This document shows, piece by piece, positions 28,408 to 36,804 of a DNA stretch of 64,000 nucleotides (position 1 is the first letter of the stretch; the number at the start of each line of letters is the position of its first letter). Below the pieces are notes generated by a model. That model was given only the letters and a program-made list of their open reading frames with translations, did no database searches and was not told where the DNA came from. The position numbers and the translations under genes are program-made. This DNA comes from Coleofasciculus sp. B1-GNL1-01 (GTDB taxonomy: Bacteria; Cyanobacteriota; Cyanobacteriia; Cyanobacteriales; Coleofasciculaceae): assembly GCA_040220235.1 (NCBI GenBank), contig JAVJTO010000031.1, one strand, 5' to 3'.

Positions 28408-29250
28408 TCAAGCTGACACAGCCGCTAAACTGGCTGGGATTTTTCGCCCGACGGCGGCGGCGACGGGGTGTAAGCTGTGAACCAACTGCACCATATCGTC
28501 TAACGATAACGCTTGACGGGCATCCGATACGGATTTTTCCGGTTCGGGATGACACTCGATGATTAATCCATCCGCACCTACTGCGACAGCCGCTTTCGCC
28601 AACGGGGAAATTAATTCCCGTTTGCCCGTGGCGTGGGAGGGATCTACAATCACAGGCAATGAAGTCATCTGCTTAAGTGCCACAACTGCTCCCAAATCTA
28701 AGACATTCCGGGTATAAGTATCGAAACTGCGAATCCCTCGTTCACACAGTACCACCTGAGAATTCCCATGACTGAGAATATATTCGGCTGCCATAACGAA
28801 TTCTTCTAGAGTCGCCGCTAATCCCCGCTTCAGCAGAATCGGTTTATCAACTTGACCCAAGGCTTTGAGTAAATCAAAGTTTTGCATATTACGACTGCCT
28901 ACCTGAAGCATATCAGCATGGGCAGCCACTAACTCGATTTGGGTAATGGACATGACTTCCGTCACCACGGGAATCTGATGACGCGATCGCACCTGGGATA
29001 ATATCTCTAGTCCCTCTACCCCTAAACCTTGGAACGAGTAAGGAGACGTGCGAGGTTTGAAAGCACCGCCGCGTAACGCCTGAACCGGGGCGCGTTGCAG
29101 TTGAGTGGCGACGGTTTCCATCTGCGATCGACTCTCCACCGTACAAGGACCAGCAATTATCACCAGTTCCTCACCCCCGAAAGTGATATGATTCGACAGA
29201 TGAACCAAAGTTGGGCGATCGGATTGGGTGGCAAGTGTAGCATTCACCAT
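28408..29250 (-). CDS. aroF: 3-deoxy-7-phosphoheptulonate (DAHP) synthase, type I-beta, without N-terminal regulatory domain
   Basis: IAGPCTVE, GAFKPRTSPYSFQGLG, GSRNMQNF and DPSHATG motifs; about 280 aa. Confidence 0.95.
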   Translation of the reverse strand: MVNATLATQSDRPTLVHLSNHITFGGEELVIIAGPCTVESRSQMETVATQLQRAPVQALRGGAFKPRTSPYSFQGLGVEGLEILSQVRSRHQIPVVTEVMSITQIELVAAHADMLQVGSRNMQNFDLLKALGQVDKPILLKRGLAATLEEFVMAAEYILSHGNSQVVLCERGIRSFDTYTRNVLDLGAVVALKQMTSLPVIVDPSHATGKRELISPLAKAAVAVGADGLIIECHPEPEKSVSDARQALSLDDMVQLVHSLHPVAAAVGRKIPASLAAVSA

Positions 29251-29280: not shown

Positions 29281-29315
29281 AATAAAAAAACCCGGTTCCT
29301 TGTGGGTTCCGGGTT
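29281..29315 (-). terminator. attenuator terminator 2 (proximal to aroF)
   Basis: Minus strand AACCCGG-AACCCACAAGGAA-CCGGGTT followed by TTTTTATT. Confidence 0.85.
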
Positions 29316-29340
29316 CTGAGAAAATTTAACGCAGCATCAC

Positions 29341-29409
29341 CTACCCGGAACTGCTTCCGAACCAAAAAAAGTAAAACAAGGTAAACCAGTGATTCAGGTA
29401 GGTTGTCAT
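29341..29409 (-). CDS. aromatic-amino-acid leader peptide 2 (MTTYLNHWFTLFYFFWFGSSSG)
   Basis: AAGGAG RBS; 9 of 22 codons are F/Y/W; 3' end GTTCCGGGT is complementary to the terminator 2 arm ACCCGGAAC. Confidence 0.85.
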   Translation of the reverse strand: MTTYLNHWFTLFYFFWFGSSSG

Positions 29410-29421
29410 CAGATACTCCTT

Positions 29422-29457
29422 AAAAAACAAAAAGACCGCAGCTTTCGCTCTGCGGTC
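29422..29457 (-). terminator. attenuator terminator 1
   Basis: Minus strand GACCGCAG-AGCGAAAG-CTGCGGTC followed by TTTTTGTTTTTT. Confidence 0.85.
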
Positions 29458-29486
29458 CACCGGGGAGGTTCCATGAGGAACTCTGC

Positions 29487-29543
29487 TCACCTCCGGTGAA
29501 CCTCCGTAAACCAAAAATAAAAGTAGTTGTTGCAGTTGAGCAT
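29487..29543 (-). CDS. aromatic-amino-acid leader peptide 1 (MLNCNNYFYFWFTEVHRR)
   Basis: Six consecutive aromatic codons YFYFWF; GGTTCACCGG can pair with CCGGTGGACC overlapping terminator 1. Confidence 0.8.
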   Translation of the reverse strand: MLNCNNYFYFWFTEVHRR

Positions 29544-29720
29544 AGCTGAGGGCTTTTTATGAAACGTTAATTAGATGCCTGTTACTGGACACGATAGCAA
29601 GCTGTTGTGGCTAAGTCAATACCTGATCTGGATCAAGTTTCTGTTTTCCACGGGTGTGATCATGCACCTGGGGGAGCTGGGGGAGCTGGGGAAGCTGGGG
29701 AAGCGGGGGGAGGATAAAGT

Positions 29721-29823
29721 TATAGCACTTCTCGATTGGGTGCAATACACCTTGGTAGAGACAGGGTGTGGGGTGTGGGGTGTGGGGTGTAGGGTGTAGT
29801 GCTTTCAAATGAGAACCGCTATA
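29721..29823. mobile_element. MITE-like element with TATAGC...GCTATA ends
   Basis: TATAGCACTTCTC / GAGAACCGCTATA imperfect inverted ends around GGGTGTG heptamers. Confidence 0.55.
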
Positions 29824-29949: not shown

Positions 29950-31059
29950 ATGAACCTAAATTTAACCGAACATACCGAAGGCAATGCCACATTTAAAATT
30001 GGTAATGCGTTTTATCGCCCAGGGACGCAAGTGGTGCGAGATTTAGGCATTTTAGCCGCAGCAATTTATAAGTTTCAAATCGGTCACTTACGAGTAATTG
30101 ATGCGATGAGTGGCTGTGGAGTGCGTTCTCTACGCTATAGTTTGGAAAGTCAAGCCGATTGGATCTGGGTGAATGAGGGAAATCCTGAGCTTAACCCGAT
30201 TCTACAGCAAAATTTAGCAGGCGCGATCGCCAGCCATAAAGCTACCCTTACCCATCTCGACGTTAATCAGGTCTTTTTTGAGTGCTATAACCGTCGAGAT
30301 TACTACGATTTCATCGATGTGGACTGTTTCGGTTCCCCTACTCCCTATCTGGATACCAGCCTCTGGGCGCTGAAACTAGGGGGACTTCTTTATCTCACCA
30401 GTACCGATGGGCGTAAACTAACAGGTCATGCTTCAGAAAGCAGTTTGGGGATTTATGGGGCGTATCCCCGCAACCATCCCGCCGCCCAGGAACAAGGATT
30501 GCGAGTGGTGATTGGTAAACTTCAGCAGCAAGCCATCGCCAAGGGTTTGGGGATTGAGCCGATTTTCTCCCTGTTTACGGGTCAAACTTACCGCCTAATG
30601 GTACGTTTGGTCAAAACCCAGCCGTTGACGCTGCAAAATTACGGATTTTTGGGTTATTGTCATCACTGTGGTAATTATCAAACTGTGTCTTGGCGTCAGT
30701 TAGGGCGTGTGGTTTGTGCTTATGACCAAAAATCCCTGACCCTGAGTGGTCCGTTGTGGCTGGGATTGTTGCATAATCAATCTTGGTTAAGACAGATGCA
30801 GGGATTAGCTCAAAAGTGGCACTGGTCAAAACGGGTACAACTCCTCAGCCTCATGGAAGCAGAAGCCGATTTCCCGCCCTACTTTTATACCTTGGCGGAA
30901 ATTGGACGCCGAGGGCGTTTGGATATCCCAAAACGAGAGTATCTGATTCAGGCGTTGCGCGATCGCGGATATTTCGCCTGTGCCACTCATATTACACCGG
31001 GAGCGATTAAAACCAACGCCGATATTCACACTTGTATCGCTGTTGCGATAGACCGATAA
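29950..31059 (+). CDS. Trm1-like tRNA (guanine-N2)-methyltransferase
   Basis: FY.P...RDL, DAMSGCGVRSLRY, DVDCFGSP, LTSTDG, C..CG and GPLWLG motifs match the Trm1 family. Confidence 0.82.
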   Translation: MNLNLTEHTEGNATFKIGNAFYRPGTQVVRDLGILAAAIYKFQIGHLRVIDAMSGCGVRSLRYSLESQADWIWVNEGNPELNPILQQNLAGAIASHKATLTHLDVNQVFFECYNRRDYYDFIDVDCFGSPTPYLDTSLWALKLGGLLYLTSTDGRKLTGHASESSLGIYGAYPRNHPAAQEQGLRVVIGKLQQQAIAKGLGIEPIFSLFTGQTYRLMVRLVKTQPLTLQNYGFLGYCHHCGNYQTVSWRQLGRVVCAYDQKSLTLSGPLWLGLLHNQSWLRQMQGLAQKWHWSKRVQLLSLMEAEADFPPYFYTLAEIGRRGRLDIPKREYLIQALRDRGYFACATHITPGAIKTNADIHTCIAVAIDR

Positions 31060-31297: not shown

Positions 31298-32035
31298 ATG
31301 ACTGCCATTTTAAAGGTTGGCGACCAAACCATCACGGCTGAAGAAGTAATTCCCCTGTTAGCCAAATATCAATTACTCCCTCAGTTATTGCGAGAAATCA
31401 TTATTGATCAAGCCATTGCCACCATAGATTGTACCGACGATGAAAAAAATGCTGCCTGCGAACAGTTCTATGCTAAGAATCAACTCACGACTGAGGAAGA
31501 ACGTCAAGCGTGGCGCGATCGCCAAGACTTAAGCTTAGAACAAGTTGAAGAGTTAGCGGTTCGGGGACTGAAGCTGGAAAAATTTAAACAGGCGACCTGG
31601 GGACATAAGATTGAATCCTATTTCCTCAAGCGCAAAGGGCGGTTAGATCGGGTCATTTATTCCCTGATTCGGACAAAGGAGGCGGCGATTGCCCAAGAAC
31701 TCTATTTTCGTATCCAAGAAGGAGAACAGTCATTTAATGAACTTGCCAGGGACTATTCCCAAGGACCAGAGGCGCAAACAGGCGGATTAGTCGGACCCGT
31801 GGAACTGAGTACACCCCACCCCACCTTGGCGCAAATGTTAACTGTCAGCCAACCCGGTCAACTTCTACCCCCTACCCGCTTGGGGGACTGGTTTATCGTC
31901 ATTCGTTTAGAAAAGTTTTTACCCGTGCAACTTGATGATGCCATGCGTCAGCGACTCCTAGATGAAATGTTTACCACCTGGTTAAAAGAACAACTGCGAC
32001 AGCAGATATCCTTAGGTACACCTGTTCAATCCTAA
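31298..32035 (+). CDS. parvulin/PpiC-type peptidylprolyl isomerase
   Basis: F.ELA.DYSQGPEAQTGG.VG rotamase motif; lies upstream of a T1SS ABC transporter. Confidence 0.88.
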   Translation: MTAILKVGDQTITAEEVIPLLAKYQLLPQLLREIIIDQAIATIDCTDDEKNAACEQFYAKNQLTTEEERQAWRDRQDLSLEQVEELAVRGLKLEKFKQATWGHKIESYFLKRKGRLDRVIYSLIRTKEAAIAQELYFRIQEGEQSFNELARDYSQGPEAQTGGLVGPVELSTPHPTLAQMLTVSQPGQLLPPTRLGDWFIVIRLEKFLPVQLDDAMRQRLLDEMFTTWLKEQLRQQISLGTPVQS

Positions 32036-32092
32036 ACCCTGTCAAGACGTGCCATGCTACGTCTCTACAATGCTATTCCCTGAGGCTGCCCC

Positions 32093-35000
32093 ATGACCTA
32101 CACAAAGACAACAATTCAGGATTTTCTGGCAGATATCGTTCCCTTCAATCAACTTGACGCCTCGACCCTAACCAAGTTGGCGGAAAAAAGTCAACTGCTG
32201 CGCTATCGTATGGGTCAACCGATCCTGATGCGAGAAAAAATGCCCTCTCAGATCTCGATTCTCTATGAGGGAAAGGCGCGGCTTTTGAGTTACGAACAAA
32301 CCACCCAAAAACCCGTCACCCTGGACTTGCTGAAACCGGGCTCAATTCTGGGTTGGGTGAGTCTGATGCGGGGTATCCCTTGTGAAACAGCGATCGCATC
32401 GACGGAATCAGTCTGCTTAACCATCCCCACGGGTCAGTTTCTGGCGCTGATGGCACAGGAACCTACCGCTACCGCCGCGTTCCAAAACCAGTGCAGTGTC
32501 ATCGAAGCCTTTGAGTTAATTGGCGCGGAATTGGTACGCCAAGCCAGTGGGATTATGAATCTCAAAGAACTGGCGACAAACGCTTACCCAGATGCCGAGG
32601 TGCGTTACCTCTATCCCATGACTGACGCCACTGAACTCTTGACCCCTGATCGGGTGTGGTTCGTCAGTGGTGGGAGTGTCGTTAAAGATTTTCCCCTAGG
32701 AAGTCGGCTGACGCCAGAGGTGATTTCTCAAGGGTTAGACATCCAAGGATCTACCCCCGCCCGGATTATCGGGTTTCGTGAATCGGATTTAGTCGGGGAA
32801 GCTGAAACCGAACTCCCGACTACTCCGGTGACGGTAGTTGGTGAACCAACCCCCCTAACCACCGACGATGACCCCTGGCTGGATGATGGCGATGGCGACA
32901 ATAGCATTCCCTATGCCTCCGATAAACTGCTAGAAGCCACAGAGGATGAAGATCAAACCGCTGACTCCCAGCGCAAATATCCCCATGTCCGAGGGAAGGG
33001 ACTCCTCGATGGTACCGTCGCCTGTTTCCAAATGCTGAGTAAGTATTTAGAAATGCCCTTCCGCCGCGATGTGATTCGTCGGGTACTCAATGAACAGATG
33101 CAGCGCACTGGAGGGTTGTCGTTACCCCTGTGTGGGGCGGTAGCTGATTTAATCGGCTTACACGCCCAATTGGTAAATGTACCGCCCCAATCAATCAACC
33201 GCCTGCAAACCCCCGCCCTGGTTCCTTGGCATGAAGGTTTTGCCGTTCTCTATGAAGCCAAGCCACGAGAATTAGTACTGGGTGTGCCAGAACTGGGGAT
33301 TGTCCGCCGTAAACCTGCTGATTTACTGGATAGTTTACCGAGAAGCGAAGACGGGCAGTCACCGGAAGCGATCCCGGTGTTGTTGGTACAACGGACGAAA
33401 CACACACCGAAGCAGCGGTTTGGCTTGCAATGGTTTCTCCCCTCGCTGGTGCGCTACCGTCGCGTTTTAATCTTGGTGTTTATCGCCTCGTTTTTTGTGC
33501 AGCTATTCGGACTGGCGAATCCGTTGATGATCCAGGTGATTATCGATAAGGTGATTGTACAGAACAGTATTGATACGCTGCATGTGCTGGGCTTGTTCCT
33601 GGTGATCATTGCCGTTTTTGAGGCATTATTAACCAGTTTCCGGACGTATCTATTTGTGGATACGACGAACCGGATTGACATGCATCTGGGGTCGGAGATT
33701 ATTGACCACTTAGTCCGCTTACCGTTGCGGTATTTTGAACGGCGTCCAGTAGGGGAACTGGCAAGTCGAATTAATGAGTTGGAAAATATTCGTCAGTTTC
33801 TCACGGGAACGGCGTTGACGGTGGTGTTAGATGCGGTGTTTTCCGTGTTGTACATCGTGGTCATGTTTATTTATAGCTGGGTGCTAACAATTGTCTCGTT
33901 GGGGATTATTCCCCTGTTTGTGTTGTTAACCGTAATTGTTTCACCGATTGTCCGTCGCCAACTGCGAACCAAAGCAGAACGGAACGCCCAGACTCAATCC
34001 TATTTAGTGGAAGTCATGTCCGGGATTCAAACCGTCAAAGCGCAAAACATCGAATTGCGATCGCGCTGGCAATGGCAGGAACGCTATGCCCGGTATGTAT
34101 CGGCAGGGTTTAAGACGGTGCTAACGTCTACAACGGCGGGTTCAATGAGTAATTTCTTGAATAAACTCTCCGCTTTGTTAGTGCTATGGGTGGGTGCTTA
34201 TCTGGTTTTAGATGGGCAGTTAACCTTGGGGCAATTAATCGCCTTCCGAATTATTTCCGGCTATGTTACCAGTCCCCTACTCCGATTAGCCCAACTGTGG
34301 CAGAATTTCCAAGAAACGGCGCTATCCTTAGAACGGTTAAGTGATATCGTGGATAGCCCCCAAGAAGCGGATGAGGCAGATCGCTTAAATATTCCCATGC
34401 CTGCGATTAAAGGGGAAGTGGAGTATGAAAATCTCTCCTTCCGCTTTGGCACCAGTGGTCCTTGGCAATTAACCAATATTAACCTGCATTTTCCGGCTGG
34501 CGTATTTGTCGGGATTGTCGGTCAAAGTGGTTCCGGTAAGAGTACATTAATGAAACTGTTACCCCGCCTCTATGATGTCGATTCAGGCAGAATTTTAATC
34601 GACAACTACGATATCTCCAAAGTTGAACTCTATTCCCTGCGTCGTCAGGTAGGGATTGTACCCCAAGATAGTCTGCTGTTTGATGGTACGGTACAAGATA
34701 ATATTGCTCTGACCAATCCCGATGCTAGCGCCGAGGAAATCATTGAAGCCGCTAAAGTCGCCGCCGCTCATGAGTTTATCATGGGGTTGTCCAGTGGTTA
34801 CAATACAAGAGTCGGGGAGCGAGGATCATCCCTATCCGGGGGACAACGCCAGCGGATTGCCATTGCCCGCACGGTACTACAAAATCCGCGACTCTTAATC
34901 TTGGATGAAGCCACCAGCGCCCTTGACTATGACACCGAACGGCAAGTTTGTTTAAATCTAATTGAAGCCTTCAAAGGACGCACTGTCTTTTTCATTACCC

Positions 35001-35143
35001 ACCGTTTAAGTACCATTCGTAACAGCGACGTCATTTTAATGATGGATAAAGGATCAGTCGTTGAACAAGGAACCCATGACGAACTGATGGCACTGCAAGG
35101 GCGCTACTACTGCCTCTATCAACAGCAAGACGCTCAACTTTAA
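32093..35143 (+). CDS. type I secretion ABC transporter (HlyB family) with cNMP-binding and C39-like domains
   Basis: GQSGSGKS, LSGGQRQR and LDEATSALD motifs; ABC membrane domain; N-terminal cNMP domain. Confidence 0.95.
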   Translation: MTYTKTTIQDFLADIVPFNQLDASTLTKLAEKSQLLRYRMGQPILMREKMPSQISILYEGKARLLSYEQTTQKPVTLDLLKPGSILGWVSLMRGIPCETAIASTESVCLTIPTGQFLALMAQEPTATAAFQNQCSVIEAFELIGAELVRQASGIMNLKELATNAYPDAEVRYLYPMTDATELLTPDRVWFVSGGSVVKDFPLGSRLTPEVISQGLDIQGSTPARIIGFRESDLVGEAETELPTTPVTVVGEPTPLTTDDDPWLDDGDGDNSIPYASDKLLEATEDEDQTADSQRKYPHVRGKGLLDGTVACFQMLSKYLEMPFRRDVIRRVLNEQMQRTGGLSLPLCGAVADLIGLHAQLVNVPPQSINRLQTPALVPWHEGFAVLYEAKPRELVLGVPELGIVRRKPADLLDSLPRSEDGQSPEAIPVLLVQRTKHTPKQRFGLQWFLPSLVRYRRVLILVFIASFFVQLFGLANPLMIQVIIDKVIVQNSIDTLHVLGLFLVIIAVFEALLTSFRTYLFVDTTNRIDMHLGSEIIDHLVRLPLRYFERRPVGELASRINELENIRQFLTGTALTVVLDAVFSVLYIVVMFIYSWVLTIVSLGIIPLFVLLTVIVSPIVRRQLRTKAERNAQTQSYLVEVMSGIQTVKAQNIELRSRWQWQERYARYVSAGFKTVLTSTTAGSMSNFLNKLSALLVLWVGAYLVLDGQLTLGQLIAFRIISGYVTSPLLRLAQLWQNFQETALSLERLSDIVDSPQEADEADRLNIPMPAIKGEVEYENLSFRFGTSGPWQLTNINLHFPAGVFVGIVGQSGSGKSTLMKLLPRLYDVDSGRILIDNYDISKVELYSLRRQVGIVPQDSLLFDGTVQDNIALTNPDASAEEIIEAAKVAAAHEFIMGLSSGYNTRVGERGSSLSGGQRQRIAIARTVLQNPRLLILDEATSALDYDTERQVCLNLIEAFKGRTVFFITHRLSTIRNSDVILMMDKGSVVEQGTHDELMALQGRYYCLYQQQDAQL

Positions 35144-35262
35144 GGTATTTGTCTTATGTCCTTTGTTTCTTTTCAAGACCTCAATATGACGAAATTGGTT
35201 TGAGAGGAAACAGGGACGAATGACCAATGACGAATGACCAATGACGAAGGACTAATACTACC

Positions 35263-36804
35263 ATGAATCAACGCAACGGATCATCCAGCCAACCCCTTGC
35301 CACGCGATCGCCCGCCCAGTCAGTGAAAACTGCAACCAAAGCCGGAGCTACTCGGCGGACAACGCACCCTCCGGAATTTGATCAACCCGTTATCCTGCAA
35401 CAATCTCCCCTGTGGCCCCGCATGATTGTTGTGGCGTTGATTGGGGTGACAACCCTCAGCGTCGGGTGGGCGTGTTTGGCGAAAATTGAAGAAGCCATTC
35501 CCGCCCAAGGCAAACTCGAACCCAAAGCCGCCGTCAAAGAAGTCCAAGCCCCTCAAGGGGGGGTGGTTAAATCAGTGGAGATTGAAGAAGGCGATCGGGT
35601 TGAAAAAGGGGATACCCTGCTCACCTTTGACCAAACAGCGGCTCAAGCTCAATTTAAATCCCTCCAGCAAATTCGCGCCGCTTTAATCCAAGAAAATCAA
35701 TTTTATCAGGCTCAGATGACGGGCAAAGCTGTTTCCATTGACCCCGAAAATCTACCGGAGAAACTCCCCCCTCAAATTGCCTCACTCACCAAAAATCGGG
35801 CGGCTTTAGTGGCAGAAAAGAACTTCTATCAAGCTCAACTCACCGGAGATCCCACGGGTCTAACCTTGGCACAACGGCAACGCTTACAGGCAAGCCAAAA
35901 CGAGTATAACTCTCGCGTTGCTGCTGCCGAGTTAGAAGTCGAACAACTCAATCGCCAACTGACTCAAACCCAAATCCAACTTGCCGATGCTGAACAAGTA
36001 TTGCAGTTTAACCGACAAATTACTGAGCGCCTAGAGAAGCTGTGGCGAGAGGGCGCATTTGGCGAACTCCAATATCTACGTCAGAAACAAGACACCGACA
36101 GTAGCGCCGCCGAGGTAGCCCGTCTCCAGAAAGAACAGGAACGGTTAGAGAAAGCGATTCAGCAAGCCCAGGAACGCAAACAAAACACCATGGCGCTCTC
36201 AGAAGAAGAACTGCGAACCCAAATTGCCCAAAACGAACAACGGATCGCCGAAATTGACAGCCAACTCACCAAAATTATTGTTGAAAACCAAAAACGTCTC
36301 CAAGAAATCGAGAGCCAACTCAGCCAAATCCAGGTAACGCTAACCAATCAGGAATTACAGGCACCTGAAGGCGGCATCGTGTTTGACCTGCAAGCCAGTC
36401 CTGAATTTGTGGCAAACACCAGTGAGCCTGTTGTGAAAATTGTCCCGAATGACACACTGATTGCCAAAGTTTATATCACCAACCAGGACATTGGTTTTGT
36501 CAACGAAGGAATGCCCGTAGATGTTCGAGTTGATTCCTTCCCCTACAGCGAATTTGGCGATGTCAAAGGCGAGTTAGTCCAAATTGGGTCGGATGCTTTA
36601 CCGCCTAATGAGGTTTACCCGTTCTATCGTTTCCCCGCCGAAATTCGCATGAATCGACAAACCATATCGGTCAACGGCAAAGAAGTTCCCTTACAATCGG
36701 GGATGTCGATCAGCGCCAATATTAAAGTCCGCAAGCGTCCGGTCATTAGTATTTTCAGTGACCTATTTATGCGGAAAATTGACAGTCTCAAAACGGTACG
36801 GTAG
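35263..36804 (+). CDS. HlyD family membrane fusion protein
   Basis: TM segment, lipoyl-like halves, long coiled coil, DIGFV and LQSGM motifs. Confidence 0.93.
   Translation: MNQRNGSSSQPLATRSPAQSVKTATKAGATRRTTHPPEFDQPVILQQSPLWPRMIVVALIGVTTLSVGWACLAKIEEAIPAQGKLEPKAAVKEVQAPQGGVVKSVEIEEGDRVEKGDTLLTFDQTAAQAQFKSLQQIRAALIQENQFYQAQMTGKAVSIDPENLPEKLPPQIASLTKNRAALVAEKNFYQAQLTGDPTGLTLAQRQRLQASQNEYNSRVAAAELEVEQLNRQLTQTQIQLADAEQVLQFNRQITERLEKLWREGAFGELQYLRQKQDTDSSAAEVARLQKEQERLEKAIQQAQERKQNTMALSEEELRTQIAQNEQRIAEIDSQLTKIIVENQKRLQEIESQLSQIQVTLTNQELQAPEGGIVFDLQASPEFVANTSEPVVKIVPNDTLIAKVYITNQDIGFVNEGMPVDVRVDSFPYSEFGDVKGELVQIGSDALPPNEVYPFYRFPAEIRMNRQTISVNGKEVPLQSGMSISANIKVRKRPVISIFSDLFMRKIDSLKTVR

Follow-up and report, generated by a model that had tools for sequence, protein, structure and literature searches.

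An aroF-like gene for a short DAHP synthase of Coleofasciculus sp. B1-GNL1-01 is preceded by what is, at a probability of roughly 0.88, a conserved double attenuator that senses aromatic amino acids via the ribosome. The locus lies on the minus strand of the window, i.e. the whole 64,000-nt stretch of contig JAVJTO010000031.1 that was analyzed. Between 29620 and 29250, there are two short ORFs in which Phe, Tyr, and Trp codons abound. Each is followed by a hairpin and a U tract, and both ORFs end in a strand able to pair with the 5' side of their own terminator. The coordinates given in the original prediction for the leaders, the terminators, the Shine–Dalgarno (SD) sequence, and the aroF start were all reproduced on this strand. 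The features are as follows:

29591–29619, minus strand: predicted sigma-70-type promoter (TTGACT, 17 nt, TATCGT, with TG before)
29487–29543, minus strand: leader ORF 1, 18 codons, MLNCNNYFYFWFTEVHRR and stop; no SD
29493–29502, minus strand: 5' strand of antiterminator 1 at the end of leader 1, pairing with 29463–29454
29486–29500, minus strand: small 5-bp hairpin over the leader-1 stop codon (RNAalifold consensus)
29454–29463, minus strand: 3' strand of antiterminator 1, the last 4 nt of which form the base of terminator 1
29422–29458, minus strand: intrinsic terminator 1, hairpin and U tract, -15.4 kcal/mol
29416–29421, minus strand: SD sequence AAGGAG of leader 2, from the sequence
29341–29409, minus strand: leader ORF 2, 22 codons, MTTYLNHWFTLFYFFWFGSSSG and stop; control codons W8–F17 at 29388–29359
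29342–29351, minus strand: 5' strand of antiterminator 2, closing leader 2 and able to pair with the entire 5' arm of terminator 2
29281–29315, minus strand: intrinsic terminator 2, hairpin and U tract, 5' arm 29315–29306, -13.3 kcal/mol
28408–29250, minus strand: aroF-like gene, 280-aa type I-beta DAHP synthase, barrel only; ATG at 29250

The predicted transcription start lies about 40 nt 5' of leader 1. The underlying TTGAC-17/18-TA..T element recurs 5' of leader 1 in most homologues, and in 65 among the loci listed the best promoter site ends 43–51 nt before the leader-1 ATG. The stretch from leader 1 to aroF yielded no promoter-like site. Metatranscriptome contigs from four runs, which stem from a related strain and carry 27–33 differing letters each, cover leader and gene, as a single piece in three of the four runs; such contigs cannot show ends, strand, or level. 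They also extend 5' of the predicted promoter in three runs, and for both reasons we counted them neither for nor against the proposed layout. Upstream of the promoter, short tandem repeats at 29668–29712 (9-mer, five copies) and 29764–29797 (7-mer, 4.9 copies) draw many contigs from elsewhere. Further upstream, a divergent gene on the plus strand (29950–31059) resembles Trm1 tRNA dimethyltransferase below family cutoffs and is linked to the leader in close Coleofasciculus relatives only; beyond it, at 31298–36804 (plus strand), visual inspection suggests a row of genes for a peptidylprolyl isomerase-like protein, a peptidase-type ABC transporter, and an HlyD-like protein.

The aromatic codons stand out within the genome. 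Leader 1 carries six consecutive ones, as originally described for 29543–29487, with the control run YFYFWF at 29525–29508, and the nine aromatic codons of leader 2 were found as well. Among 6316 ATG-started upstream ORFs (uORFs) of 10–35 codons in 3818 upstream regions of the Coleofasciculus genome, only five contain at least six aromatic codons in eight. Two of these five are leaders 1 and 2, which are also the only aromatic-class uORFs in this test with a terminator after them. When the genome was scanned for 18 codon classes followed by a terminator, no further evident match between codons and gene emerged among the 40 candidates listed, with the match judged by the N-terminal sequence of the downstream gene only.

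Across 107 distinct loci, both reading frames are maintained. Leader 1 was scored in 97 loci (three were dropped for want of an anchor) and leader 2 in 104. An in-frame start is present in 97 of 97 leaders 1 (96 ATG, one GTG; none in the other two frames) and in 101 of 104 leaders 2 (93 ATG, eight GTG, three without; two and one in the other frames), numbers that express conservation rather than significance since related loci are not independent. The last Trp of leader 1 lies seven codons before the stop in 88 of 97 loci, and the leader-2 anchor six codons before the stop in 93 of 104. Core positions are aromatic in 93–100% of leaders 1 and, for the last four positions, in 98–100% of leaders 2; they swap Phe, Tyr, and Trp and vary between TAT and TAC, while indels keep the frame. 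All three residues occur together in 96 of 97 leader-1 and 99 of 101 leader-2 peptides. The ribosome binding site AAGGAG of the original prediction is present here at 29421–29416 but is not general: SD-like motifs were seen before leader 2 in 51 of 104 loci and before leader 1 in 3 of 97. Around both starts, the predicted RNA structure is weak (median -2.7 kcal/mol), which would be compatible with SD-independent initiation. Nearly all control Phe codons read TTT (at two leader-1 positions, 87 of 87 and 86 of 87). Close to the leader starts, by contrast, Phe codons without a control role are mostly TTC (26 of 33 and 35 of 38). Genome-wide, TTT makes up 74% of Phe codons, and tRNA-Phe(GAA) is the only one found. 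This bias may stem from selection that favors either the codon read by wobble or runs of U.

The competing RNA helices are conserved in their pairing and covary. For each unit, 51 diverse sequences were hand-picked and aligned, out of 100 and 103 distinct ones, respectively. Antiterminator 1 is paired in 89% of alignment cells, with two-sided changes at 5 of 12 pairs and in 32 cells compared to 8.0 after shuffling (reached in none of 500 shuffles). Terminator 1 is paired in 96% of cells, with 3 of 9 pairs two-sided. The corresponding values are 89%, 6 of 10 pairs, and 19 versus 6.2 cells (0 of 500) for antiterminator 2, and 91%, 6 of 10 pairs, and 35 versus 9.6 cells (0 of 500) for terminator 2. 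All four helices exceed all 500 shuffles in paired cells and in two-sided cells, though such shuffle counts are not probabilities, because the sequences are related and the helices were drawn from the same sequences. Moreover, the paired cells of all four helices exceed every slid register. The count of two-sided pairs is weaker for unit 1, being reached in 46 and 21 of 500 shuffles. RNAalifold independently picks terminator 1 together with the hairpin over the leader-1 stop, as well as antiterminator 2. The stop-codon hairpin (29486–29500) is highly conserved and free of two-sided change; it is possibly a pause hairpin. Conserved uORFs rich in Phe, Tyr, and Trp codons and compensatory stem changes, the two signs that the original prediction had proposed to look for in homologues, were thus both found.

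In unit 1, the antiterminator pairing comprises 10 bp including one G-U (-16.9 kcal/mol, compared to -15.4 kcal/mol for terminator 1). The competing pairing of the original prediction exists, but it covers the bottom 4 nt of the terminator-1 5' arm (5 nt counting G29458) and not the whole arm. That antiterminator 1 blocks only 4–6 nt of the terminator arm argues against our preferred explanation, as do the scarcity of SD motifs before leader 1 and the lack of covariation support for a classical 1:2 protector. In unit 2, antiterminator 2 (9–10 bp, -15.5 kcal/mol versus -13.3 kcal/mol for terminator 2) occupies the whole arm of terminator 2, as predicted. The antiterminator cores of the two units (29502–29454 and 29351–29306) resemble one helix with or without a 2-bp insert: the consensus core is GTTC-AC-CGG with CCG-GT-GAAC in unit 1 and GTTCCGG with CCGGAAC in unit 2, located at a nearly equal distance 3' of an FYFW core. 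Judged by these sequences, both units may derive from an old duplication; yet the covariance model of unit 1, which matches this locus only in the genome, does not pick up unit 2. None of the Rfam families searched (Trp, Phe, His, Leu, and Thr leaders, T-box, and others) reaches its threshold, the two matches being at chance level (E-values of 0.84 and 2.1) and far under the gathering scores.

Equilibrium folding of the full leader yields terminator 1 at every ribosome position; hence, the switch must be kinetic and co-transcriptional. Nascent RNA was therefore folded up to the end of the terminator 5' arm with the ribosome-covered part blocked, using footprints of 9 and 12 nt beyond the start of the A site, for 98 sequences of unit 1 and 101 of unit 2. 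As long as the A site has not moved beyond the last conserved aromatic codon, at least 97% of sequences form the antiterminator, compared to 0% with the ribosome at the stop codon. The antiterminator collapses 1–2 codons past that aromatic codon in unit 1 and 3–4 codons past it in unit 2. This footprint-constrained folding, suggested along with the original prediction, thereby locates the change from read-through to termination immediately 3' of the conserved aromatic codons. Thus, the conserved aromatic run ends where a stall stops working. The leader-1 codon following Trp is borderline for the switch and only 78% aromatic. The shortest natural variants stop three (leader 1) or four (leader 2) codons after Trp, past the switch point.

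When the model contains no ribosome, the antiterminator is expected in 98% of sequences for unit 1 and in 71% for unit 2; as it is predicted to win in untranslated RNA, termination would need a timely ribosome. This differs from the E. coli trp leader, where the 1:2 protector gives termination when the leader is untranslated. Candidate 1:2 protector helices display no covariation beyond shuffles on most measures: 148 and 428 of 500 shuffles reach the observed count of two-sided cells. Weak local hairpins exist. A four-segment attenuator of the E. coli trp type was considered and is not supported, given candidate protectors that lack covariation beyond shuffles on most measures and untranslated RNA that is predicted to favor the antiterminator. 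Of 111 terminator-like sites in the genome, 12 are located no more than 12 nt from a stop codon. Judged by this genome alone, terminator positions thus bear no signature of runaway transcription, which is compatible with transcription–translation coupling.

We propose that a leader transcribed from a single promoter contains two transcription attenuators, both dependent on the ribosome, that act one after the other. The 3' end of each leader ORF would double as the 5' strand of the antiterminator in its unit. As long as Phe-, Tyr-, and Trp-tRNA are charged, the ribosome would pass the aromatic codons and cover this strand, allowing the terminator to form. If any of the three runs short, the ribosome would stall within the aromatic run, the antiterminator would form ahead of the terminator 3' arm, and transcription would read through. 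Expression of the extra DAHP synthase, which has no allosteric domain, would require read-through at both units, and transcriptional sensing would stand in for feedback inhibition on the short enzyme. Because the untranslated default is predicted to be read-through and leader 1 has no SD, a single unit may be leaky. Each unit would leak when a ribosome loads late, and the series would multiply the leaks down; according to the folding model, limiting this leak may be the reason for the tandem. The arrangement would then act as the low-leak, sharper switch originally envisaged.

Several observations place the locus among ribosome-mediated attenuators, in line with the trpL/pheL-type logic of the original prediction. 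A conserved uORF carries codons for pathway end products, with preserved frames, Phe/Tyr/Trp swaps, and fixed stop spacing. An intrinsic terminator, seen in sequence and covariation, lies between uORF and gene, and a covarying, mutually exclusive antiterminator has its 5' strand in the distal uORF. In the model, the footprint geometry fits: a stalled ribosome frees this strand and a ribosome at the stop codon covers it. Further, the gene belongs to the cognate pathway, with one predicted promoter upstream of the uORF, and encodes a type I-beta DAHP synthase devoid of a regulatory domain. From this pattern, we infer that the leaders are translated in vivo, that transcription terminates behind them, and that they respond to starvation.

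The controlled enzyme scores above cutoff with TIGR01361 and PRK08673, the match beginning only at profile position 77 of 338. The domain scan identified PF00793; PF18152 and a chorismate mutase domain are absent. A second copy encoded in the same genome (on C77) comprises 352 aa, is 50% identical, and contains the ferredoxin-like PF18152, which we take to be the allosteric domain. The best PDB match of the 280-aa enzyme is 1zco (262 aa), presumably the unregulated Pyrococcus DAHP synthase. The missing domain suggests that the short enzyme escapes feedback. Its closest named relatives are from Coleofasciculus. No conserved downstream neighbor of aroF was found among the homologous loci compared, and the gene is apparently monocistronic. 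The leader stays with the gene across these varied neighborhoods.

The short enzyme is encoded in 64 of 401 sampled Cyanobacteriota genomes. The upstream region was read in 47 of these 64, the other 17 being unread for leader 2: both leaders are present in 42, leader 1 only in two, and leader 2 only in two, while in the remaining genome the leaders are split by an insertion element at the leader-2 start. Each unit can thus stand alone in some genomes. In a set of 110 loci, which includes the best 80 of 537 hits and is biased toward best hits, with some duplicates, 102 loci show leader 1 and 108 show leader 2. The exceptions are two contig ends, an upstream stretch of just 371 nt at one locus, three loci with leader 2 only (two of these identical in sequence), and two insertions. 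Single-unit loci (G228, G038, G190, and L043) share the same promoter type. A DNA pattern for leader 1 matches once each in 55 of the 401 genomes, 54 times at a short aroF and once at a decayed aroF, compared to a single match for the reversed control pattern. In one locus (L239, from G050), leader 1 survives beside a deleted, frameshifted aroF remnant. At loci of the long paralogue, the leaders are present in 0 of 30 (nine of which belong to one genus); one of the 30 has an unrelated Trp-rich ORF.

Among 80 metagenome matches with flanks, 68 accompany a DAHP synthase, four are true leaders at contig ends, and eight are chance matches lacking the helices; none of the 80 is a true leader before a different gene. 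Viral contigs gave no matches. The tandem also precedes DAHP synthases in sequence clusters named Melainabacteria or Obscuribacterales at NCBI. In one such context (L107), a chorismate mutase–prephenate dehydrogenase fusion lies 3' of the gene, and L110 has a similar downstream ORF. Genomes of the non-oxygenic classes yielded 0 of 19 by protein search and 0 of 47 by RNA model, and other-class genomes within the 401-genome protein and leader-1 pattern searches gave no match, although proteins named Melainabacteria at NCBI cluster with leader-bearing loci. A quick tree, built on 48 of the 62 rows picked and weakly supported at its inner nodes, groups sequences named Melainabacteria or Obscuribacterales together; it supports no direction of transfer, and we claim neither donor nor age. 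One clade (L159, L115, L186) carries only unit 1; here, a chorismate mutase domain, as scanned in L159 and L115, is fused to the C-terminus of the DAHP synthase.

Variation within the leaders takes several forms. Three loci (L033, L240 from G164, and L147) carry insertions at or just after the leader-2 start, a possible insertion hotspot; the G164 insertion encodes a 419-aa ORF, presumably TnpB-like. Leader 2 runs past its usual stop (44 codons) in L017, L058, and L060, leader 1 stops early, three codons after Trp, in L031 and L246, and in L112 the second aromatic ORF is of a different kind and very short.

The closest competitor of this explanation is a variant of attenuation rather than an alternative to it. 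It is possible, if doubtful, that the units are specialized (e.g. Tyr/Phe versus Trp), or that both report translation speed or Phe-tRNA alone, so that the series forms an AND gate or a Phe sensor. The consensus cores do differ, with one Trp in leader 1 and usually two in leader 2, and the last Trp of leader 1 sits at the edge of the switch (window value 0.75–1.0). A Phe sensor would also agree with the nearly exclusive TTT among control Phe codons, set against 74% genome-wide, and with the statement in PMC11802643 that Tyr availability is without effect on aroR–aroF. Against specialization speaks the joint presence of all three residues in almost every peptide of either leader. Likewise, either unit may be the sole one in a genome, which fits interchangeable function.

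The strong conservation and U-richness of the core nucleotides, together with a leader 1 that has no SD, could instead point to an RNA switch sensing a protein or metabolite, or to a pyrBI-type UTP/pause sensor, with the aromatic codons as a U-rich by-product. This reading is very improbable. Starts are confined to the leader frame (97/97 and 101/104, versus 0–2 in other frames), indels keep that frame, third positions vary, and aromatic substitutions include the G-rich TGG. No Rfam family reaches threshold, and the switch point coincides with the ribosome footprint. Most improbable of all, the conserved C-terminal motifs VHR and SSG might mark TnaC-like arrest peptides or peptides acting in trans, with terminators that end small mRNAs and a separate aroF promoter, but the VHR and SSG codons constitute the antiterminator strands, where they change together with the sequences they pair with. 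Moreover, the leaders tolerate premature stops and the loss of a stop (L031, L246, L017), and the search for a promoter-like site in the interval from leader 1 to aroF gave none.

Several known systems resemble the double attenuator in part. The E. coli trpL, pheL, and pheST leaders each act as a lone unit that responds to one amino acid and includes a 1:2 protector; for the cyanobacterial units, no covarying protector was found and the default is predicted to be read-through. The nearest parallel is the attenuator of Corynebacterium glutamicum aroR–aroF, reportedly described by Neshat et al. in 2014. It has a single Phe-Tyr-Phe leader and responds to Phe but not to Tyr (PMC11802643, PMC4046766). 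As described, it shares with our locus a mixed aromatic leader before a DAHP synthase and ribosome stalling that raises transcription; C. glutamicum belongs to a different phylum. In contrast, aroR is one leader with three control codons and no Trp, whereas the cyanobacteria have two units, each with Phe, Tyr, and Trp codons and a terminator. With the E. coli leaders, our units share a uORF with cognate codons, an antiterminator that overlaps the terminator, and a decision made by ribosome position; these leaders are mentioned as leader-peptide attenuators in PMC11802643. Two uORF-based attenuators in a single leader are known from Salmonella mgtCBR (mgtM/mgtP), which sense ATP and proline additively and are contrasted with a two-intrinsic-terminator leader (PMC3641672). 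The cyanobacterial units differ from mgtCBR in that both use the same codon class, have their own intrinsic terminators, and precede a biosynthetic gene. The Acholeplasma uORFC-13-1 motif resembles them in that a uORF containing a Phe codon, along with a terminator, is predicted upstream of aroF; it is a single, Phe-only, computational candidate from another phylum (PMC8632094).

For cyanobacteria, a 2016 paper by authors who had surveyed attenuation notes that there are no reliable data on it (PMC4833913). Term look-ups in the available text of PMC1173090, PMC11848123, PMC2965389, and PMC5314783 gave no mention of the leader element. No cyanobacterial report of it was found in the literature searched, which comprised the main text of openly available papers. 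Two leader-peptide attenuators for the same signal in series, each with its own terminator, were likewise not found in the searched literature. The mechanism itself is textbook knowledge. What appears undescribed is its occurrence in this phylum, the doubling of a pan-aromatic unit, and the combination with an enzyme that has no regulatory domain.

For a wider reading, the odds are about even: classical ribosome-coupled attenuation may be a phylum-level trait in cyanobacteria, with two default-ON pan-aromatic units in series whose doubling offsets unreliable ribosome loading and replaces allosteric feedback on an unregulated DAHP synthase, shared with the non-photosynthetic Obscuribacterales, where it would head an aroF–(chorismate mutase–tyrA) unit. 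If confirmed, the double attenuator would imply that RNA polymerase and ribosome are coupled tightly enough in cyanobacteria for sensing at the level of codons, and the leader would provide a simple in vivo reporter of this transcription–translation coupling. Natural one-unit versions permit a direct test of the benefit of doubling, and the module is a candidate aromatic amino-acid biosensor part for cyanobacterial engineering. Finally, it offers a possible explanation of how large-genome cyanobacteria raise shikimate flux, namely via a second enzyme that has no feedback domain and is held down transcriptionally.
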